The translations under genes were made by a program, and so were the position numbers. A DNA stretch of 64,000 bases from a virus, in the IMG/VR virus record IMGVR_UViG_3300017917_003565, positions 48,192 through 112,191 of that record. One strand, written 5' to 3'. Positions within the stretch are counted from its first letter, which is position 1; the number at the start of each line of letters is the position of its first letter. Below, piece after piece: positions 1,574-48,541 of this stretch. The notes under the pieces are model-generated. The model was given only the letters and a program-made list of their open reading frames with translations, was not told the origin of the DNA and made no database searches.

Positions 1574-2641
1574 TTACTGTTTGGGTCGGCCAATGTATTC
1601 GTGGCTATAGCACACTCGATGAGCATCACGAGCCGTAGTGGTGCCACCATAGCCGGGCATGGCTCGTACAGTGCCGTCTTTTTTGATGTAACTGGCTGCA
1701 CGGCTTTTACGATTGGTCGAAGTCGGCCGCCATAGAGGTGAATGCTCTCGGTGCTCGCCAAAGCTGGGATGAGCAGTTTTTGAAAAATATCTAAGGCCAC
1801 GATCCACATATATCTGAGCAATGGCATCACTGAAAGCAGTACCTATTCCCATACCTTGGAACTCAGGTAGCACAACTGTTCTATGACCGCGCCAGTATGA
1901 GTGTATGTCTCTGTTGGTGGAATGTATGGCAGCATGGAAGGCCACAGGTTTGTCGCCAATAAGTCCCACATAGCAATGGACTGATCGACTCATTCTAGTA
2001 TCTAGATAGTGATATTTTGAGAAATATCGCCAATAGTCCGGAGTTGTGCTTCGGATGGTGAGTGTGATCTTTGGTCGCCCCAATCGAAGAAGTGACCTCC
2101 GATTATCTAATACCTGTAGGTCGGTATCATACACCCAGTCTGGATCCAGCCAGTCTATTATGTCTCTGTGACAACTAGCGATATACAACACGCCAGGATT
2201 GCGGTCAAAATACTTACGAACGCTTAATGCCAAACTTTTGGCAGTATCACGATCAACCACCGATGTAAACTCGTCAATGATCGTGTGTCCTTGATCCAGG
2301 CCCATGGCGATTTCAAATCTATGAAACTCACCATTGCTCAGAGTACTGGGTTTACGGAACCAAGCAGGTATGGTTCTCAGACCACAAGCAAGTAACAGTT
2401 CTTCGCCACGTTCAGGTGTACTAAAGTTTTCAATAACTGTTTTATCATAATCAATATCAAAGTCAACATCAAAAGGCTTTGGATTATCTACAGTTCGAAG
2501 AATTGTAGTCTTGCCTGACCCCGAAGTTCCTACGATCAACACAATGCCTTGGGTAGGTAACTTGGGAATGACTATGTTGGGTTCAACATAGTCCTTGATA
2601 TCATAGCGTTGTTTGATTTCGTCAAGATAGTTGCCAGGCAT
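1574..2641 (-). CDS. ABC-type ATPase fused to GNAT/Mom-like acetyltransferase
   Basis: Walker A GTSGSGKT, signature LSNGE, Walker B IIDEF; C-terminal acetyl-CoA motif RTVVLPEFQGMGIG. Confidence 0.8.
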   Translation of the reverse strand: MPGNYLDEIKQRYDIKDYVEPNIVIPKLPTQGIVLIVGTSGSGKTTILRTVDNPKPFDVDFDIDYDKTVIENFSTPERGEELLLACGLRTIPAWFRKPSTLSNGEFHRFEIAMGLDQGHTIIDEFTSVVDRDTAKSLALSVRKYFDRNPGVLYIASCHRDIIDWLDPDWVYDTDLQVLDNRRSLLRLGRPKITLTIRSTTPDYWRYFSKYHYLDTRMSRSVHCYVGLIGDKPVAFHAAIHSTNRDIHSYWRGHRTVVLPEFQGMGIGTAFSDAIAQIYVDRGLRYFSKTAHPSFGEHREHSPLWRPTSTNRKSRAASYIKKDGTVRAMPGYGGTTTARDAHRVCYSHEYIGRPKQ

Positions 2642-3575
2642 CCGAATATTCCATTATGCTGTCAAAGGTGTTTTTGGGAGTGGGCATGATGCTGGGACTA
2701 TACAACAAAATTTCTTGTGCGGACTTGGCGGTGCGCACTGTTTTATCATCTTTCTCTTCCGTGGCTCTGCGTCCAGCAGTGTACTTGATGTCGTAGTAGT
2801 TGATTGATAAATGCCCTCGGTTGGAGGTATAAAACGTGTCGGTGTCTCCGGCCATGCGATTGCAATACATGACCAGGTGTCCGGCTAAATCTGCTGATTT
2901 GCAAAAATCTATGAGCTTGACATGTGCCGTGTCATCAAACGTGGTACCGTACTGTGTGAAACTGTCTCGATATGGTGGATCAAAAAAGTAAAACGCACGG
3001 CCTGGAACTTGATCCACACAACTTTCCCAGGATCCGCTGTGTATAGTCACTCGTTGCAAGAAAGCATGCCATTCCATGACATTGGCTCGATCATACACTG
3101 ATCCGCGATGATTCAACAGGCCCGATGGGGTACAGAAACGACCTTTGGCTTCTTTGGTGCTTTGCCATATGCCGTTGAATGCTGTTTTCATAAGGAAGTA
3201 TAAACATGCGCTCTGGCGAGTGGGCGACCAGCTGGCCCAGTCAGTGATGTATTCTTTGCGTATCTGATAGTAGTAGGCCTTGCGGGCGTTGGCATCCATG
3301 GGCAGATAGGTGTTGCAATAGGCATCACATTCTTGTAGGAACACAGCCACATCGTTGCGTATGGCACGATACAGACCCACAATCTCTTCATTGATGTCAT
3401 TGAGAACAAAGTTTTGAACCGTGGGATTGTTTTCATATACATGGATCATCATGGCACCGCCGCCAAAGAATGGTTCCACGTAGGTGTCGTATCCGCTGAG
3501 AGGTAGCCCTGGGGCTTCCTGATACTTGGGTATCATTTTGCTCTTGCCGCCGGCCCACATGTACAATGGTTTCAT
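2622..3575 (-). CDS. DNA adenine methyltransferase (Dam/D12 family)
   Basis: WAGGK, EPFFGGG (motif I), LNDIN, DPPY (motif IV). Confidence 0.9.
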   Translation of the reverse strand: MKPLYMWAGGKSKMIPKYQEAPGLPLSGYDTYVEPFFGGGAMMIHVYENNPTVQNFVLNDINEEIVGLYRAIRNDVAVFLQECDAYCNTYLPMDANARKAYYYQIRKEYITDWASWSPTRQSACLYFLMKTAFNGIWQSTKEAKGRFCTPSGLLNHRGSVYDRANVMEWHAFLQRVTIHSGSWESCVDQVPGRAFYFFDPPYRDSFTQYGTTFDDTAHVKLIDFCKSADLAGHLVMYCNRMAGDTDTFYTSNRGHLSINYYDIKYTAGRRATEEKDDKTVRTAKSAQEILLYSPSIMPTPKNTFDSIMEYSDAWQLS

Positions 3576-4456
3576 TAGGTATTTAATCTAGGGTTTACTG
3601 TGAGAATAAAATTGCTTTCATAGGCCTCGGCTATGTCTTTGGTAGAGTAGGCATTGGCCAACATGTCAAGAGCTAGATCCTTGGCTTCTGGCTTGTCCTC
3701 TCTACTGACTCGCACCCAGGCCTGTGCCAATGGATCACGCTTGTTTTGCAAGATTTCCATGAATTGATCATCGATGCTGTTGAGCTTTTGTTTGACCAGA
3801 ATATCTGCCATGATCTGCTCAGGAGTGAGAGTTTCTTCAAACAGTGACAAGAAATGATTGGTGCGAACCTTGCTGTCAAGATAGGGCTTGATATCATTGA
3901 ATTTGAGATCGTCTAGTTTCAGTGTGGACCTCATGATTTCAAAGATTTGTTCTTGACTGAATCCGTCGGGTGCATAATGCCATTTGACATTTGAGCCATG
4001 GATGATTTCCATGTTGGTACCATGTCTGTGCAACACTTCTCCTTGGGCCGCACCAGCACCGGTGGCAAAGGTCACATATTCGCAATCAGGGTTGATCGCG
4101 GTACAAATGTCATGATTGGTGCCCCAGCGTTCAATAGCATTGCCACCGGTGCCTTGATGCTTGGCTTCAAACACACATTTGAGTCGACGGTTTTTCACTG
4201 TTCTATCACCATCAAACCACATGCCGCCGTCGGGCACACAGCCTAACGTGATGCCCATGGACACCAGTTCTGGCAATCCAGCACGATCTCTCACGCTTTC
4301 GCTGATACGGTCACTGGTGAGATTCCTATGACCTTGTTCATAATGATATCGTTTTTGGGCCAAGGCAATGGCCTGCGAAACCACTCGGACATCGCCGTCG
4401 AGTTTTTTGGATTCTGCGCTGCCTGCTTCGGTACCTTTTTGTATGCCACCTGCCAT
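3575..4456 (-). CDS. EcoRI-like type II restriction endonuclease
   Basis: PDGG...EAKHQG...GNAIER, matching the EcoRI catalytic PD-(D/E)xK and recognition motifs; abuts the methylase. Confidence 0.72.
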   Translation of the reverse strand: MAGGIQKGTEAGSAESKKLDGDVRVVSQAIALAQKRYHYEQGHRNLTSDRISESVRDRAGLPELVSMGITLGCVPDGGMWFDGDRTVKNRRLKCVFEAKHQGTGGNAIERWGTNHDICTAINPDCEYVTFATGAGAAQGEVLHRHGTNMEIIHGSNVKWHYAPDGFSQEQIFEIMRSTLKLDDLKFNDIKPYLDSKVRTNHFLSLFEETLTPEQIMADILVKQKLNSIDDQFMEILQNKRDPLAQAWVRVSREDKPEAKDLALDMLANAYSTKDIAEAYESNFILTVNPRLNT

Positions 4457-4482
4457 AAATCACCCTTTATAGTCTTTCTGCT

Positions 4483-4511
4483 AGTTTAACACAGAGTGAT
4501 TTTTTGGTCAA
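4483..4511 (-). promoter_or_regulatory. sigma70-type promoter for the nuclease-methylase operon
   Basis: TTGACC-N17-TAAACT on the minus strand. Confidence 0.6.
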
Positions 4512-4753
4512 CCACCATATTTCAGCAGACACAACGTGTATTTCTGGGAATCAATGATTTCGGGTTCCCCAGTAATACCACCATCCTCGTCATAGATCGG
4601 TCGGAATCCATGTTGAGCTTCGCACCAATCCCAAAAGTTCCAATCAGTAGGATGATCTAACATGACCTTGCCTAGCATAGCCCAGTAGGCTTTACTATCG
4701 CCCACTACGGTGTCTAATCGTGCCGCCCGGTCTCGATAGAGATCATCGTTCAT
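4508..4753 (-). CDS. small phage hypothetical protein (W-C...L-K/R-W/Y family)
   Basis: ORF coupled to neighbours; C-terminal motif shared with local paralogues. Confidence 0.6.
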   Translation of the reverse strand: MNDDLYRDRAARLDTVVGDSKAYWAMLGKVMLDHPTDWNFWDWCEAQHGFRPIYDEDGGITGEPEIIDSQKYTLCLLKYGG

Positions 4754-5063
4754 TGGGCCACCTTAGTTGAAAGAAGTTGAGTTCCTTGTCGGTGGCCAAG
4801 AAAAAATAAAATAGGTTATATTTGCTAGGATTGTCCCATGCCCAGTGTGGGTTTACTGTGTAACCATGATGTTCTAGGTAACCATGGTAACGTGCCTCGC
4901 AACTGTGTCCCCAGGTATCTGTGCACCAATTTTTCATGCGACGATACAGGTCTATCTTGGCAGGAAAATCTCGTAACTCGCCATCGTTGATGTGTATGCG
5001 ATACCGAGCAAAATGACTTCCTGTGTATCTGCGATCTATAAGTTTGATATCGTAGTTTTTCAT
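4743..5063 (-). CDS. small phage hypothetical protein (W-C...F-x-L-R-W family)
   Basis: ORF; ends ELNFFQLRWP; ATG at 5063 preferred. Confidence 0.6.
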   Translation of the reverse strand: MKNYDIKLIDRRYTGSHFARYRIHINDGELRDFPAKIDLYRRMKNWCTDTWGHSCEARYHGYLEHHGYTVNPHWAWDNPSKYNLFYFFLATDKELNFFQLRWPNER

Positions 5064-5071
5064 TTTGTTCA

Positions 5072-5310
5072 CATGCTCTGCCAGGGCCGGCGGTTACTAT
5101 AGAAGCAATCTGTGCCACAACCAGTTGGTGGCACGTCTTGGTTGCCCGATGGGGCTCAGCAAGACAGGATTAACAACCTCGCCATCCGCTTCACGGCGCC
5201 CTGCGTTATCGTATTGCCAACGCCAGTTGGGTTTGACTGGGACCACCCGTAGTTCGCTAAAACCACTATCATGCGGGTCACACTAGACAGGCGCTACCTG
5301 TCACGAACCA
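5072..5310 (-). ncRNA. putative structured non-coding RNA (~240 nt), family not assigned
   Basis: Gap without a credible ORF in a gene-dense region; nine mutually compatible helices including long-range 5082-5087/5198-5203; strand inferred from flanking genes. Confidence 0.55.
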
Positions 5311-5505
5311 TTAGTGGAGAGTGTCTCCACCATCCACACCCCAAAATACCGATCCACCAGCATCATGAAGATCCTGCATTTTTTTGTTCATTACGGCTTC
5401 CTGTACTCTTAGTAATACTTCATCTATCTCGTCCTGTGTCAACATGCTTTCCGGCAACTTGCCTTCTAACACTGCCCAAATAATCATTTCTCTATCTTCG
5501 GTCAT
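5311..5505 (-). CDS. hypothetical protein
   Basis: ORF with SD-like AGGAA upstream. Confidence 0.55.
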   Translation of the reverse strand: MTEDREMIIWAVLEGKLPESMLTQDEIDEVLLRVQEAVMNKKMQDLHDAGGSVFWGVDGGDTLH

Positions 5506-5513
5506 GCCAGTTC

Positions 5514-5930
5514 CTATCTACAATCACATTTCATCAATCGTTGGTCTCGATGTCTGCGCCAGACAGCATCCAGATCATCTGCACGGAATATCTTGTCAAA
5601 CAATCGGTCAGTAATGCCTTCTACACCAGCATAGACGATTTCTTGTGTGCCTTCCCACCATTCGTAGTCAAGATTCCACTTTGGTATCAGAGACCCACGG
5701 GCGTCGCTGTCATGCATGGGCACTATGTTGCGCCACTGTAGCATGAGGCGGTCCAAGGTTTCCTGCCAATACCAACGGCTCCATTCCGAACTAGCACGGC
5801 CCAGAGCTTCTCGGGCCGCATCCAATCTCAAACCAAGATTTTCCATTTCCAAGCCTATCATGCGCCAGTTACGCAGATCTGCTTGCACAGCCACAAACTC
5901 TATAGGGGTTGACTTGGCAAATAGGTTCAT
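5514..5930 (-). CDS. hypothetical protein
   Basis: 138-aa ORF downstream of promoter-like sequence. Confidence 0.6.
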   Translation of the reverse strand: MNLFAKSTPIEFVAVQADLRNWRMIGLEMENLGLRLDAAREALGRASSEWSRWYWQETLDRLMLQWRNIVPMHDSDARGSLIPKWNLDYEWWEGTQEIVYAGVEGITDRLFDKIFRADDLDAVWRRHRDQRLMKCDCR

Positions 5931-5966
5931 GATTTTAGTTTACTATACACAGTGGTTCCTGGTCAA

Positions 5967-6233
5967 TCAAGACCATTTCATTACGAATGCCAGACAATCT
6001 CTTTCATCGTCAAAGAAAAAACAGTAGCGTCCGGGTTTGATGTCTGAACTCATTTCTATCAACTGCCAGCGCCATTCACCAATGATTTCGCTTTTGCACC
6101 AGCTCAGCACAGTTTCTATCGCGCCAAAAGGTTTGATGATTTCTTGTGCATAGCGGAAACTGTCACGATCTCTGACCCAATCCATCGGTGGCATCTGTGG
6201 ATCGGGCTTGACTTTGCTTTTAAGCTGGGTCAT
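5967..6233 (-). CDS. small phage hypothetical protein (W-C...F-F-D-x-R-D...K-W family)
   Basis: ends FFFDDERDCLAFVMKWS. Confidence 0.6.
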   Translation of the reverse strand: MTQLKSKVKPDPQMPPMDWVRDRDSFRYAQEIIKPFGAIETVLSWCKSEIIGEWRWQLIEMSSDIKPGRYCFFFDDERDCLAFVMKWS

Positions 6234-6621
6234 AGATCAATCTATTGACGTGTTGCTTGGGTATACCCCAGAAATCATAGCTGTCTATGATGTCACGCAC
6301 ATAACCAGAACTAGGTGTGCCAGTTTTTGGATCATTCATTTCATAGAAGAAAAACTGTATGCCATCTTGTATCCAGGTACGTTTAACATAATAATATGGA
6401 AAACCTTCAAAATGATCCAGAGACTGTTCACAATCACGAGTAAGGCTCCACAACACACCCGGGCATTCGGCACCTGGCCGAGGTTCAATGGTGGCATGGC
6501 AGTAAAACTTCAGTTCCCAATCACGCAACATAAACGCACCCTTGGCTTGAGCTTGTGGGCATCTCCAATGCATCTGTCCTGGATGCATGTTAGCACCATA
6601 GGCAAAATATAAGTTTTCCAT
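6220..6621 (-). CDS. gamma-glutamylcyclotransferase (AIG2-like)
   Basis: N-terminal YFAYGAN; LDHFEG with catalytic Glu. Confidence 0.8.
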   Translation of the reverse strand: MENLYFAYGANMHPGQMHWRCPQAQAKGAFMLRDWELKFYCHATIEPRPGAECPGVLWSLTRDCEQSLDHFEGFPYYYVKRTWIQDGIQFFFYEMNDPKTGTPSSGYVRDIIDSYDFWGIPKQHVNRLIYDPA

Positions 6622-6860
6622 CAGCGTACGACCTCTCCAAACTTCAATCTAAAAAGCACAGCATCACGATCAGATCTGAAACTATAGATCATGCGATGTT
6701 CATCTATGTCAGTGATGTACCTGTCGCCAGGTAAACCAAACAACTCCAGGGCCTGGGCAGTCATTTCATTCCAGTTGTGCCAAGTTGTGCTCCAAGGCAC
6801 GCAACAATGATGAACATATTCAGGATCGCGCAAGATATGTTTTTTTGATATAGTCATCAC
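6621..6860 (-). CDS. small phage hypothetical protein (same paralogous family)
   Basis: ends FRSDRDAVLFRLKFG; start uncertain. Confidence 0.55.
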   Translation of the reverse strand: MMTISKKHILRDPEYVHHCCVPWSTTWHNWNEMTAQALELFGLPGDRYITDIDEHRMIYSFRSDRDAVLFRLKFGEVVR

Positions 6861-12872: not shown

Positions 12873-15800
12873 ATGACCCAATATGTTATCAACATCGGAG
12901 CCTTGCCCAATGATGGCACGGGCGATCCGCTTAGAACCGCTTTTAACGAAGTAAATCTCAACTTTGACCAGGTTTTCGCCGCGGGTCCGGTACTGAGCAA
13001 TATTCGGATAGCCAACAACACCATACTCACTACCAACACCAATGGAAACTTGGTTTTGGCACCCAATGGCATAGGCCTAGTGCAATCCAATGTCAGCATC
13101 GTGCCTAACTCGGCCAACATACGCAATCTAGGAAGCGCAGATCGTCGTTGGAGCACGGTGTACACACAGTATCTGGACGTTTCGGCCAATCTCACCATCA
13201 GCGGAAACATCATCTACAACGGCGACCTAAATGTGGCCGGAAATCTCACAGTCAATGGCGATCTTATCGAAGTCGGCAACATCGTCACAGACAGTAAAAC
13301 CATACAGTTAGCCAACACCGCAGGTACTACCGCCGCTGCCAACGGGTCGGGTATCACTGTGGGGGCCAACGATCTTATAGCCACTTACCTTTTTGACAGC
13401 TCAGCTGATGCCTGGACCACCAATATCGGCATTACGGCCGTGGGCAATATAGCAGCACCTTATTTCTTGGGCAACGGTAGCCAGCTTTCCGGCGTACGAG
13501 CAGATACCTTGGTCGGCAACACCCTGAGTTCCAATGTGTTGTTCTCCAGCCTAACTTCCGTGGGCACCTTGACTGCGCTAAATGTAACTGGCAATGTTTC
13601 AGCCACGGGCAACATCATTGGTGGCAATGTTGAAACCACAGGACTGATCACAGCCACGGGCAACATTATTGGCGGCAACATCACTACCACAGGCAATGTG
13701 TCTGCAGATTATGTCATAGTAGCCGGAGGAATCGTAGCCGAAGCATCGGCCAGTCCGGCTCCTAGCTTATCAGGATTTGGCAATATCACTAGCGGTAATC
13801 TTATCACCACAGGGATGGTAACAGCCACTGGCAATGTCACAGGTGGCAATGTTGCCAGCGGTAACCTGATCACTGGTGTAACTCTGCAGGTGTCTGATGC
13901 CACTGTGTATGGCAACGTTGACAGTGTCATGGTCAATGCCACGGGCAACGTAGTCGCAGGACAATATTTTATTGGTGACGGTAGTTTACTCACAGGCATT
14001 GGTGCCAGCTACAACGATGCTGACGTAGCCAACTTGTTGGCGGCATTCGGTGCTAATATTATCAACAGCACTGGCAACATCACCACCACTGCCAATGTGT
14101 CCGGCGGTTACATACTAGGAGATGGTAGCCAGCTTACCAACTTGCCAGTACAACCCGGCACTTATGGTGACTCCAACGTAGTCACATTGTTGGGTGCATT
14201 TGGCAGCAACAATGTATCGACCACGGGCAACATCACAGCCGGATTGTTGATAGGCAATGGATCGGTTCTAACTGACATCACTGGAGCCAACGTCACAGGA
14301 ACTGTGGCAAATGCGTCCTACGCCACTTCGGCAGGTTCCGCGACTACTGCCACTTCGGCCACTACTGCTAACACAGTGACTGACGCAGCACAACCCAATA
14401 TCACAAGTGTAGGCACATTGACCAGTGTGACCAGCTCGGGTAACGTACAAGGCGGTAACTTGTTGACTGGCGGACTAATTTCGGCCGCTGGTAATGTTAC
14501 AGGTGCTTATATATTTGGTAACGGTAGCCAACTCACTGACATCAATGCCGTCACGATAGATATAACCGATACCAACGGGTTGACCACCGTATACTACCCA
14601 ACTTTTGTAGAGAACAGAAGCACAGGACAGATCGCCCGTGCCGATGTGGACCTTTCATATCGCACAGACACCAATACGTTGACCGTGGGCAATCTATCAG
14701 CCACTGGCAACGTCACAGGCACATTTATACTTGGCAACGGATCACAACTTACTGGCATCATTAGTAGCTATGGCGATTCCAATGTGGCCACATTGTTGGC
14801 CAACTTTGGTTCCAACGCAGTATCAACCACAGGCAACGTGACCAGTGGTAATCTAACAACTTCTGGTACTGTGTCAGCCACAGGCAATGTCAACAGCAAC
14901 GAAATCAATGCCAATCGAGCGGTACTAGGAAACATTGGTGGTAGTAGTATTTCTGCCGATGGTCGTATTTTCACCAGCGGCAATGTGGTTGCAGGAAACG
15001 TAAACTCAAACGGTATACTTTTTTCCACAGGCAACATCGTTGGTCCACATGTCAATGTCACTGGAAATGTAGTAGCTGGCAATGTCAACTCCAATGGCTT
15101 GTTGTTTGCTGTCGGCAACATCGTTGGTGCTAACTTAGATTCTTATGGTATTATCACAGCGATTGGTAATGTCACTACCAATGCCAACGTCAATGCCAAC
15201 AACTTGCATGCATCAAATCGACTCAGTGTTACCGGTAACATAGTAGCCGGCAATGTCAACTCCAATGGCTTGTTGTTTGCTACAGGTAACGTAGTGGGCG
15301 GCAATGTCAACTCCAATGGTAGAATTTTTGCGTCAGGCAATATACAAGGTGCTAACATTGACACCACTGGATCAATTTCAGCTGTGGGTAATGTGATTGG
15401 TGATTACTTCTTTGGTAACGGTAGCCAACTTACTGGCATTGTAGTTTCTGGAGGAACTTCCATAGACAATGGCATATCAAATGTGAGCATAGCTTCTGCT
15501 AATGGTCCAATCACTGTGTCATACAATGGCAGCGGCAATACCTGGACATTTGGCAATACAAGTGTTCCACAAGCTCTGTATTGGCCGGATGGATCATTCC
15601 AGGCCACAGCCTTTGTGGGCCAGGCCACAGACTTGGTCAGTACAGGTAATGCCACAATCACCAGCGATGCGCTTGGTGTATCATATGTATGGACCTTTGA
15701 CGATATTGGAAATCTCACTCTGCCTACCAACGGTAGTATTGTTGTAGATGGCGGCGATGGTGCGATTGGCCCGGTCAGCGACGACTTAGTTATCTCATGG

Positions 15801-17027
15801 GACAACGAGGAAATCCGCTTGGTTTCTGTTCAAGGCAGCATTGAAATGCAGGCTGACAACGCATTCCGTGTACAGACCAGTTATGACGGTCCCAATGTCA
15901 TATATGGCAGCCGCTGGGAATTCAGCAACAACGAAATCGTCAACATCACCGGTGATTTTGGCATTGTGTCTGAAGTAGGAAACCTCACCCTGTCGGGCGG
16001 ACGTGATGGTGTCAACAGCGGCAATACCACAGTGCGAGCAGTTAATGTTGGCGTGTTGGTTGCTGACTGGGTATTTGACAACACTGGCAATCTTACAGCA
16101 CCCGGAAATATCATCACTACTGCCAATGTGTACGGTGATGTAGGATTGTTCAATGACATCAATCTTAATAATGCCGGCACTAACCGTATGCTCTATGTTG
16201 ATGGTGATCGCAACATCTACGACACTGATTTCTCTTATGATTCAGCTAACAGTGTTATATCTGGCACCGGCAACATCATAGCTGGTTATTTCATTGGTGA
16301 CGGTAGTCAACTTACAGGGTTGTCATCAAGTTATGGCAATGCCAACGTAGACGTTTACCTTAGCAGTGGCACCATGTCAGCTAATATCATTACCACAGGT
16401 AATGTAGATAGTGCCAATGTCAACACCAGCAGAATGGTTATAGGCAATATTGGTGGTAGCAGTATTTCTGCCGATGGTCGTATTTTCACCAGCGGCAACG
16501 TAGTAGCTGGCAATGTCAACTCCAATGGCATACTGTTTTCAACCGGCAATATCGTTGGTCCACATGTCAATGTCACTGGCAACGTAGTGGCCGGCAATGT
16601 CAACTCCAATGGCGTTATTTTTGCCACTGGTAATATTACTGCCGTGGGTAATATTATTACTTCGGCCAACGTAGTGGGCAACACCTCGGGCTACACCATT
16701 GGTTACAGAGATATACCACAGGTGGCTTTTTCAGCCAATACTACCGCAGCTCTTATTGACGCTGGTAAACATTATTATTCCACTACAGCAGGTAACTTGA
16801 ATCTAACTTTGCCCGATGATTCATCGGTGACATTCCCAGATGGCGCTACATTGACCATTGTACTCAATGCCGCAGGTAATGTCTTGGTCAGCCAAGGAAC
16901 AGGTGTTACCCTGTACCAAGCCGGTAGCGCAACTACAGGAAATCGAGTGGTAGGAGCCTATGGACTGGCCACAGTGATGAAAGTGTCTGCCAATACCTGG
17001 GTGATCAACGGAACAGGAGTGTACTAA
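12873..17027 (+). CDS. long tail fibre / virion structural protein (Gly-Asn-Thr-rich beta repeats)
   Basis: N-terminal INIGALPNDGTGDPLRTAF baseplate-attachment motif; GNV/GNI repeats; recurrent GxGSxLT; TAAATA upstream (12845-12850). Confidence 0.8.
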   Translation: MTQYVINIGALPNDGTGDPLRTAFNEVNLNFDQVFAAGPVLSNIRIANNTILTTNTNGNLVLAPNGIGLVQSNVSIVPNSANIRNLGSADRRWSTVYTQYLDVSANLTISGNIIYNGDLNVAGNLTVNGDLIEVGNIVTDSKTIQLANTAGTTAAANGSGITVGANDLIATYLFDSSADAWTTNIGITAVGNIAAPYFLGNGSQLSGVRADTLVGNTLSSNVLFSSLTSVGTLTALNVTGNVSATGNIIGGNVETTGLITATGNIIGGNITTTGNVSADYVIVAGGIVAEASASPAPSLSGFGNITSGNLITTGMVTATGNVTGGNVASGNLITGVTLQVSDATVYGNVDSVMVNATGNVVAGQYFIGDGSLLTGIGASYNDADVANLLAAFGANIINSTGNITTTANVSGGYILGDGSQLTNLPVQPGTYGDSNVVTLLGAFGSNNVSTTGNITAGLLIGNGSVLTDITGANVTGTVANASYATSAGSATTATSATTANTVTDAAQPNITSVGTLTSVTSSGNVQGGNLLTGGLISAAGNVTGAYIFGNGSQLTDINAVTIDITDTNGLTTVYYPTFVENRSTGQIARADVDLSYRTDTNTLTVGNLSATGNVTGTFILGNGSQLTGIISSYGDSNVATLLANFGSNAVSTTGNVTSGNLTTSGTVSATGNVNSNEINANRAVLGNIGGSSISADGRIFTSGNVVAGNVNSNGILFSTGNIVGPHVNVTGNVVAGNVNSNGLLFAVGNIVGANLDSYGIITAIGNVTTNANVNANNLHASNRLSVTGNIVAGNVNSNGLLFATGNVVGGNVNSNGRIFASGNIQGANIDTTGSISAVGNVIGDYFFGNGSQLTGIVVSGGTSIDNGISNVSIASANGPITVSYNGSGNTWTFGNTSVPQALYWPDGSFQATAFVGQATDLVSTGNATITSDALGVSYVWTFDDIGNLTLPTNGSIVVDGGDGAIGPVSDDLVISWDNEEIRLVSVQGSIEMQADNAFRVQTSYDGPNVIYGSRWEFSNNEIVNITGDFGIVSEVGNLTLSGGRDGVNSGNTTVRAVNVGVLVADWVFDNTGNLTAPGNIITTANVYGDVGLFNDINLNNAGTNRMLYVDGDRNIYDTDFSYDSANSVISGTGNIIAGYFIGDGSQLTGLSSSYGNANVDVYLSSGTMSANIITTGNVDSANVNTSRMVIGNIGGSSISADGRIFTSGNVVAGNVNSNGILFSTGNIVGPHVNVTGNVVAGNVNSNGVIFATGNITAVGNIITSANVVGNTSGYTIGYRDIPQVAFSANTTAALIDAGKHYYSTTAGNLNLTLPDDSSVTFPDGATLTIVLNAAGNVLVSQGTGVTLYQAGSATTGNRVVGAYGLATVMKVSANTWVINGTGVY
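14928..16613 (+). repeat. 171-bp intragenic duplication (14928-15098 and 16443-16613)
   Basis: identical 57-aa segment GNIGGSSISADGR...GNVNSNG, synonymous DNA differences. Confidence 0.85.
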
Positions 17028-46981: not shown

Positions 46982-48541
46982 TTATGCTGATCCTTGTTGG
47001 TTGGTCAACTTTCTTTCAATGCTGTCACGTTCGGCGTCGCTGAGTAGATCTGGATCGTATTCGCCAGATTCAATCTTGGCTATGAGATGATCAATGTAGG
47101 CATCATCATAGGCATAGATGTCGGTCAAAGCCTTGTCTACTTCTACCCAGAGATTTCCATTGAACTTGTACAAGGTGCTGGGCAACTGATCCACACGCAG
47201 GAACATATCACCTTTCTTGGGATTAAATGGAAAACTGGTTCCAAATCCTTTGACTTCTCCTTTGAGTCCTGTGGGTGCATTATCAGCTTCTAATCCCTGT
47301 GTGGCCATTACACGGGCCTGGAACTCGGAATCTTGCCAGGGCAACTGTTGTATGGCTCCTGAAGCCAGGAGATATCGTTGGCGTTTGAGAGTGTCATCAG
47401 GATTTTCAACCTTCCAGGCACGTTCAGCCAGTTTTTCTGGTGTGTTGATGTTTTCATCCGTGGATTCGTCGGGCAGTGTAGGGGTATTGAGAGGGGCATG
47501 CTCGGCTTCGGAGTCACGTATGACCAATCGCTTGGCATTGGCCCACATGCTGTCAAGGCCTTCAAATATGGACTTTTTCTTGATGGGTTCTTCGACGGGT
47601 GGTTCATATGTACCTGTGTCGATGGACTGAGCCACATTCCGAGCTCGATCAAAAAACACTGTGGTGTCTGTATCTACCTTAGCTTCTTGAAGTTGAGCAT
47701 TGAGTTGATTTATCTGGTCGTCGCTGAGCGAGTTGTTGTCCGGCTCGTAATCAGTGCGTCGTTTACCTGTGGCAAATATGTTTACACCCTGTTCCCATTC
47801 CAAGGTCTTGGTCGCGGCCAACAACAAGGTCAGAGCTAATGGATCAAACACTATGACGATCAAAATAATGACCCAACGCACAGCCTTTTCTAACACATTG
47901 GCCTCAGGATTGTCGCCATAGATCAAAGCCGCTATGTATTTGATTGGCCCAACTTCAGCCTCGACTTTCCGTGCTTCGCTGGCTATAGGTGCTCGTTGTT
48001 CTTGTAGTTTGACGATTTCAGCCTGAGCCCGAGAGATGTCTGCGTTGAGTCTGTTGCGTTCAGTACCCTGGCTACGTCGAAGATTGGCCGCACGTTGCGC
48101 ACCTTGTTCGTCGTTGCTGCGGGCCATCTGTTGATCCACTGCTTCGTCCATCTGCCGCAGAGCCTTGCGAGCGGCTTCGATGTTATCACGCTGTGATTTT
48201 ATTTTGTCGTCAAATATGGCTACCTGGGCCTGTATATCACCTGACGGAACTGCTTGATCTAGGTGCGCTTTGGACAAGAATCCAAACACACCCATGCTGG
48301 TAAGAACCATGAGTATGGCCACTGCGCTTGATAGATATATTTTGTATTGTAGTTCGGCTCGGTGCCAGTATCTATGTAACCACAAGGTACTGACTATTTT
48401 GCCCACTTCTAGGCTCGATCCCAAGATCACAATGGGCCAAAAAGCCGCGGCAAATATAGCCGTAAGGCCTAGTATAGAATAATAGGCAGCACTGACCGAG
48501 ATGATCAGTGCAGTTGCGAGAGTAAGTAAACCAAACCACAT
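46982..48541 (-). CDS. membrane protein with long coiled coil
   Basis: TMs, FGFLSKAH, EVGPIKY, VFDPLA; acidic C-terminus. Confidence 0.7.
   Translation of the reverse strand: MWFGLLTLATALIISVSAAYYSILGLTAIFAAAFWPIVILGSSLEVGKIVSTLWLHRYWHRAELQYKIYLSSAVAILMVLTSMGVFGFLSKAHLDQAVPSGDIQAQVAIFDDKIKSQRDNIEAARKALRQMDEAVDQQMARSNDEQGAQRAANLRRSQGTERNRLNADISRAQAEIVKLQEQRAPIASEARKVEAEVGPIKYIAALIYGDNPEANVLEKAVRWVIILIVIVFDPLALTLLLAATKTLEWEQGVNIFATGKRRTDYEPDNNSLSDDQINQLNAQLQEAKVDTDTTVFFDRARNVAQSIDTGTYEPPVEEPIKKKSIFEGLDSMWANAKRLVIRDSEAEHAPLNTPTLPDESTDENINTPEKLAERAWKVENPDDTLKRQRYLLASGAIQQLPWQDSEFQARVMATQGLEADNAPTGLKGEVKGFGTSFPFNPKKGDMFLRVDQLPSTLYKFNGNLWVEVDKALTDIYAYDDAYIDHLIAKIESGEYDPDLLSDAERDSIERKLTNQQGSA

Follow-up and report, generated by a model that had tools for sequence, protein, structure and literature searches.

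Within the DNA analysed here (64,000 nt, referred to as the window, cut from positions 48192 to 112191 of an IMG/VR virus record of 112 kb), a gap between two genes very probably contains a genuine structured RNA under selection. Its conserved core comprises 213 nt on the minus strand (5073-5285), which fold into 12 helices with 60 base pairs, and it lies directly in front of a gene for a protein of 106 aa (4743-5063, minus strand) with which it is co-inherited. Since the conserved RNA lies directly before this gene, is inherited together with it and is not followed by a terminator, its simplest reading is a cis-acting 5' leader of this gene, to which we assign a probability of roughly 45%.

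The CheckV completeness of the 112-kb record of about 33% suggests a very large phage as the source. All credible genes around the gap are located on the minus strand. Upstream, these are an ORF of 138 aa (5514-5930) and, directly adjoining the gap, an ORF of 64 aa (5311-5505). Downstream follow the gene called at 4743-5072, for which the alignment with relatives places the true start at the ATG at 5063, an ORF at 4508-4753, a 293-aa gene (3575-4456, phrog_2400) and a D12-class adenine methyltransferase (2622-3575). The gap itself comprises 238 nt (5073-5310) between the minus-strand genes at 5311-5505 and 4743-5072, and the ORFs inside it are short and without exception lack an ATG start. The first-pass annotation had described the gap as free of credible ORFs, richer in GC than other intergenic DNA and devoid of a U-tract or of the hallmarks of tRNA, tmRNA, RNase P or SRP, and these points were confirmed. 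The gap has no conserved frame, its sense-frame translation has no homologue among 5.8 billion proteins, its GC content amounts to 0.555 (5100-5299) and to 0.56 in the core compared to about 0.43-0.50 nearby, and the site scan, which revealed no terminator-like site in the gap, as well as ARAGORN and the Rfam search remained empty.

Some further features of the surroundings were noticed. The final codons of the 64-aa ORF overlap with a small hairpin (GGAGA-CAC-UCUCC, 5314-5326), which closely precedes the variable hairpin at the 5' end of the RNA and is missing in the second copy described below. The 293-aa gene and the D12-class methyltransferase (window 2622-4456) occur as a pair in nine IMG/VR loci (L002-L010) with identities of 31-56% and 43-69%, respectively, and may represent a restriction-modification-like or methylation module. 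For a 480-aa ORF (73-1515), weak PHROG matches to PAPS-reductase and QueC-like auxiliary genes were obtained (E about 5e-4), and a 133-aa ORF (6220-6621) corresponds to a GGACT/AIG2-like gamma-glutamyl cyclotransferase (E 2.8e-7). An ORF of 1384 aa (12873-17027) lies on the plus strand, against the surrounding gene string; it showed no family match, its sole match being a sub-threshold Chlorovirus glycoprotein repeat.

A metagenome scan with protein alignment returned one locus, a contig of 4821 nt (L011), so that two copies of the RNA are known as DNA. Positions 1352-1561 of this contig (210 nt) align with window positions 5285-5073 on the minus strand, and an orthologue of the 106-aa gene follows at 1573-1884 with an amino acid identity of 68-69%. 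A comparison of both copies showed a nucleotide identity of 87% for the RNA, while the adjacent coding sequence reached 71% and its third codon positions 57%. Upstream of the first core column (column n corresponding to window position 5286 - n), the alignment collapses.

The 27 differences between the two RNA copies comprise 13 in paired columns, and pairing is kept in all 13 cases. Accordingly, 100% of the pair cells are paired in both copies across the 60 base pairs and none is broken. Six pairs show double compensatory changes, two of them in H2 and one each in H5, H6, H8 and H11, and one further change in a paired column is a C to U giving a G.U pair. In a control in which the partners were slid by 1-3 columns, 0-1 double changes and a pairing of 35-46% were obtained. 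Since the fold was derived from the same two sequences, a stricter control was carried out, in which the same 27 differences were placed randomly and the alignment was refolded with RNAalifold (n = 300). This resulted in a mean of 0.98 double changes and a maximum of 4, and none of the 300 simulations reached 6. Compensatory changes were thus seen in local as well as long-range helices.

The fold, which was calculated with RNAalifold from the window and the L011 copy, comprises two domains (all helices on the minus strand). In the 5' domain (5205-5278), helix H1 (5274-5278/5245-5249) encloses the variable hairpin H2 (5260-5263/5252-5255; two compensatory pairs) and is followed by the hairpins H4 (5236-5240/5223-5227; loop of 8 nt) and H5 (5220-5222/5210-5212; one compensatory pair). 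Within this domain, a block of 30 nt (5220-5249) is identical in the window and L011. The 3' domain (5082-5203) is closed by the long-range helix H6 (5198-5203/5082-5087), which closes a junction with the hairpin H7 and helix H8 (5171-5183/5089-5099). H8 for its part is the closing helix of a four-way junction, from which H9/H10, H11 and H12 branch off; H9 lies at 5135-5140/5160-5165 and H11 at 5128-5134/5112-5118. Both ends of the core are joined by the outer helix H3 (5241-5244/5075-5078), whose 3' strand reads GAGC. Of the nine helices proposed from the window sequence by the first-pass annotation, five (H1, H4, H6, H9 and H11) are identical to helices of the covariation-supported consensus, whereas those at 5090-5093/5186-5189, 5204-5207/5219-5222 and 5250-5253/5265-5268 do not appear in the two-sequence consensus. 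The ninth, a hairpin with a 6-bp stem and a loop of 5 nt (5286-5291/5297-5302; 5286-5302 in total, minus strand), is present in the window and abuts the core, but its sequence is not conserved. In L011, another, imperfect hairpin is found at the same place, between the predicted transcription start and the core, and the two 5' hairpins are presumably equivalent.

With regard to the strand, 4-5 G.U pairs of the fold would become A.C mismatches if read on the plus strand. Since the G.U pairs, the flanking genes and the promoter in L011 all share one orientation, the evidence points to the minus strand, which is the sense strand of the flanking genes, as the strand from which the RNA would be transcribed.

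The RNA also contains a direct repeat of 16 nt (5113-5128 and 5215-5230; in the sense direction CCAACUGG..GGCA), whose copies are 81% identical and 102 nt apart. The repeat is kept in L011, and both copies contain ACUGG, which is able to pair with CCAGU of H4. A putative alternative pairing or pseudoknot of H4 with the H11 loop is therefore possible; both segments are invariant and for this reason lie outside the reach of covariation.

Further lineages became visible by spurious ORFs, which had been called across the element in three or four additional lineages, on either strand and not in a common frame. P0005 (62 aa) reads the element in antisense, while P0171 (167 aa), P0156 (156 aa), P0173 and P0004 (121 aa) and P0002 (130 aa) run from the element into the 106-aa gene and thereby extend its N-terminus. 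P0005, P0171, P0156 and P0173 were converted into IUPAC codon constraints with ambiguous third positions and aligned to the window RNA, P0173 standing for the cluster of P0004 and P0002 belonging to the cluster of P0156. Only 7 of 134 back-translated pair cells (5%) were unable to pair, compared to 31-40 (23-30%) with slid partners, and most of these 7 cells adjoin indels, where the alignment is uncertain. Where both sides were forced to differ from the window, 6 of 7 cells could still pair. In P0171, both strands of H6 are changed at 4 of 6 pairs (C-G to G-C, G-C to C-G twice and C-G to U-A), and in H11 an A-U pair is changed to G-C in P0171 and a G-C pair to A-U in P0005. These data represent constraints, not sequences. 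They were obtained independently of both DNA copies and point in the same direction. Altogether, the RNA is rare, with a known range of about five or six metagenome lineages, and the four close protein clusters contain 41 member sequences.

The folding energy, in contrast, was not below that of shuffled controls, an outcome that the first-pass annotation had named as speaking against a folded RNA. For the whole gap, z-scores of -0.22 (minus strand) and -0.68 (plus strand) were calculated, and for the core +0.6 in the window and +1.7 in L011. Because of the covariation, this result is considered to be outweighed. The signal above chance is comparative (conservation and covariation) and not energetic.

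Searches for known RNAs were without result. With cmscan, no match to Rfam 15 (4227 families) was obtained for the whole window at gathering cut-offs, nor for locus L001 (window 3573-6810) and L011 on both strands at E up to 10, which agrees with the novelty proposed by the first-pass annotation. No tRNA or tmRNA was detected by ARAGORN in L001 and L011. With a covariance model of the core (R1), the 112-kb record yielded just one copy, and four records of related large phages (G001-G004) yielded none. A blastn search of 4700-5600 against phage GenBank records gave no match. Scans of IMG/VR and GTDB genomes with flanking proteins, protein alignments and three DNA patterns from the invariant blocks revealed no true relative; the 13 DNA-pattern matches were attributed to chance, R1 scored none of them, and the best stray hit reached 9.4 bits (E 0.34). 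Protein-guided scans of IMG/VR and 185,579 species genomes, in which records very close to the genome of the window may be missing, revealed no further cassette.

According to BLAST, the segment at 1352-1844 of L011 (window 5285-4795) is the only one shared with the 112-kb record, and no other L011 protein matched this record. Since solely the RNA and the gene are shared by the two genomes, both have moved as one cassette, one boundary of which falls precisely on the 5' end of the element. For the 106-aa protein, three close clusters with 68-70% identity were found in a collection of 5.8 billion proteins. When 1.84 billion representative proteins were searched with a profile, the family grew to 201 clusters (E up to 0.001), whose members comprise about 90-125 aa and share a common motif around W-C-x-x-T-W-G-x-S-C-E. 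No Pfam, PHROG or PADLOC family was found for this protein. Its AlphaFold model showed a pLDDT of 92.4. For this model, Foldseek returned nothing from the PDB at E 0.001 or better, VIA-align returned only generic alpha/beta folds (Z of 5.6 or less), and the matches in BFVD and the ESM Atlas were restricted to unnamed phage proteins and unnamed viral clusters, respectively.

Two distant homologues of the 106-aa protein were found in other very large phages (L006:10736-11011 and L026:1995-2339), located behind an ORF of about 360 aa. In a by-eye reading of the L006 translations, this ORF resembles a MoxR-type AAA ATPase, and the 420-aa ORF that follows the L006 homologue resembles a VWA-domain protein. 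An upstream gap comparable to the RNA element is absent at both homologues. Therefore, the RNA is not needed by the gene family, and as judged from these sequences it seems confined to one narrow branch of the family.

In L011, a sigma-70 promoter with 12 of 12 consensus positions (1294-1322; TTGACA, 17 nt, TATAAT) is aimed into the element, with about 30 nt between it and the core. This promoter diverges from a weakly TctC-like gene (329-1225; 25 bits compared to a Pfam cut-off of 27), and L011 may represent the border between bacterial genes and a prophage or island. No promoter-like site was found just upstream of the element in the window, so the element is probably read within the gene string there. 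An intron was considered as well and rejected, as a promoter and not an exon precedes the element in L011; furthermore, roughly 200 family members all begin at the same methionine.

Neither the window nor L011 contains a terminator between the RNA and the gene. The distance from the end of the element to the AUG is 9-18 nt in every lineage seen, the lineages other than these two being judged by the read-through ORFs. In the window, this spacer (5064-5072, minus strand) is A/U-rich and not conserved. The only purine-rich Shine-Dalgarno-like triplet before the start codon is a GAG in the 3' strand of H3. It is separated from the AUG by 12-13 nt in both the window and L011 and could represent a putative sequestered ribosome-binding site. 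Since H3 is invariant, covariation provides no test of this helix. In single-sequence folds, the start codon itself lies within an unstructured A/U-rich stretch, so that a control of translation by its sequestration is not evident. No recognisable expression platform was found: there is no terminator-like site, and the GAG in H3 is the sole candidate for a masked site.

Read as a leader, the multi-junction RNA of about 213 nt would form the 5' end of the message of the gene at 4743-5063. RNA and gene are inherited as one cassette, with the L011 copy presumably driven by its own sigma-70-type promoter. The ligand of the leader might be a small molecule or else a protein, perhaps the 106-aa product itself, and the binding would then set the translation or the stability of the message. 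Of the roles suggested in the first-pass annotation (ribozyme-like RNA, protein scaffold or decoy), none gained support from any test, and the anatomy points to a 5' leader instead.

Two other readings would deny the existence of a functional RNA. Pairing in single-stranded DNA, for example at a replication or recombination site, would also leave compensatory changes, which alone do not separate RNA from single-stranded DNA, and the cassette boundary exactly at the 5' end of the element would fit such a site. We nevertheless regard a DNA-level element as very improbable, since G.U pairing is retained solely on the sense strand of the gene, the consensus promoter of L011 points into the element, and the fixed place beside the start codon in all lineages fits a feature of a transcript. 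Still less credible is a small protein gene missed by the ORF rules. An open frame of 49-61 codons does exist on the sense strand (5097-5282), ending with the tandem stops TAG TAA, but it has neither an ATG nor a ribosome-binding site, and its translation has no homologue among the 5.8 billion proteins. The indels between the window and L011 are single-base and not multiples of three, which shifts the end of the frame, and the L011 frame stops elsewhere. In P0171, about half of the residues over this frame are changed, several of them non-conservatively, before the frame switches. Gene callers chose different frames and strands in different lineages, and since no single reading frame is conserved among the relatives, the coding interpretation was rejected.

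The main rival to the leader is a trans-acting non-coding RNA that is paired with the 106-aa protein, as in a type III toxin-antitoxin-like or other RNA-protein module, and would be released by processing. In its favour are the common transfer of RNA and gene across unrelated contexts, the layout of promoter, RNA and small gene, which resembles such modules, and a conservation of the RNA above that of the protein gene. In addition, the start codon seems to be accessible under any fold of the RNA, and the variable hairpin beside the core could mark a processing site or shield the end. However, the tandem repeats that define the known type III antitoxin RNAs are missing, there is no terminator or recognisable processing site between RNA and gene, the protein has no ToxN-like, PADLOC or Pfam match, and distant members of its family occur without the RNA. 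Altogether, we consider a trans-acting partner unlikely, yet as the alternative to be taken most seriously. Clearly less probable is a self-processing or stabilising element, i.e. a ribozyme or a folded 5' end that excises the cassette message from a polycistronic transcript or protects it against decay. In the phage, the element is embedded in a gene string and is not preceded by a promoter-like site, which would fit this reading, and complex junctions together with long invariant blocks are typical of catalytic or ligand-binding RNAs. On the other hand, even at E up to 10 no self-cleaving ribozyme or other Rfam family matched, a cleavage site cannot be inferred, and the promoter in L011 makes an excision from an operon unnecessary there.

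The preferred reading as a cis-acting leader can also be compared with known systems. Fremin et al. 2023 (PMC10690425) describe phage RNAs that precede gp20 and gp32 as candidates for cis-regulation and use a location within 25 nt upstream of a start codon as the criterion for cis-regulation. Their survey, the largest of candidate structured RNAs in phages, lists 8495 IMG/VR candidates of 29-151 nt, each from at least three IMG/VR regions. Going by this stated length range, the element described here (213 nt) is longer than any of these candidates, and since at least three regions are needed as well, it is therefore unlikely that the whole element is part of the catalogue as there described; a sub-part of it may overlap with a listed candidate.

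Like riboswitches and other structured leaders, the element is situated within 25 nt of a start codon and is co-inherited with the gene. It is also more conserved than the coding sequence and shows multiple junctions, long-range helices and the covariation-backed conserved fold that is asked of a riboswitch (60 pairs with 6 double compensatory changes). Unlike these systems, it does not match any Rfam family, neither a terminator nor an anti-Shine-Dalgarno platform is recognisable in it, and no ligand has been assigned to it. An interpretation that we hold to be rather doubtful is a novel class of RNAs with a ligand-sensing or catalytic role in large phages and mobile cassettes, which would control or process the message of the widespread family of about 100 aa. 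If it were true, a two-domain riboswitch or ribozyme of about 213 nt and its gene would constitute a self-contained mobile regulatory unit.

The order of promoter, RNA and small gene, carried as a unit, resembles the type III toxin-antitoxin systems. In these systems (ToxIN, CptIN, TenpIN), a promoter, a non-coding RNA and a small protein gene form a mobile or phage-borne unit, the antitoxin RNA is a tandem array of 34-36-nt repeats, and a terminator lies between RNA and gene. In contrast, the element contains no tandem repeats (0 arrays with Tandem Repeats Finder), no terminator follows it, and the 106-aa protein has no detectable relation to ToxN/AbiQ, CptN or TenpN. A membership in this group was rejected, as no repeat array and only the one pair of 16-nt segments was found.

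With GOLLD and ROOL, both Rfam families, the element shares the location in phages or prophages and an elaborate multi-helix fold. Compared to these RNAs, it has about one third of the size, does not match the Rfam models, is not located beside tRNA genes and is tied to one specific downstream gene. The pseudoknot in the leader of T4 gene 32 is an autoregulatory leader of a phage mRNA. The element likewise precedes a small phage gene and could bind the product of that gene, but it is much larger than such a leader and is more conserved than its own gene, and the model of the 106-aa protein shows a generic alpha/beta fold with no sign of nucleic-acid binding.

It is uncommon for a complex RNA of more than 200 nt to exceed the neighbouring gene in conservation, and where this was the case in bacteria, the RNA has usually proved to be a riboswitch, a ribozyme or a component of a ribonucleoprotein machine. 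If the element senses a ligand or binds the product of its gene, it would offer access to the function of a phage protein family that comprises about 200 clusters, and it would exemplify a regulatory RNA travelling together with its gene from one phage genome to another. The element is rated as a probable new RNA family within a known kind, that of conserved structured leaders or non-coding RNAs.
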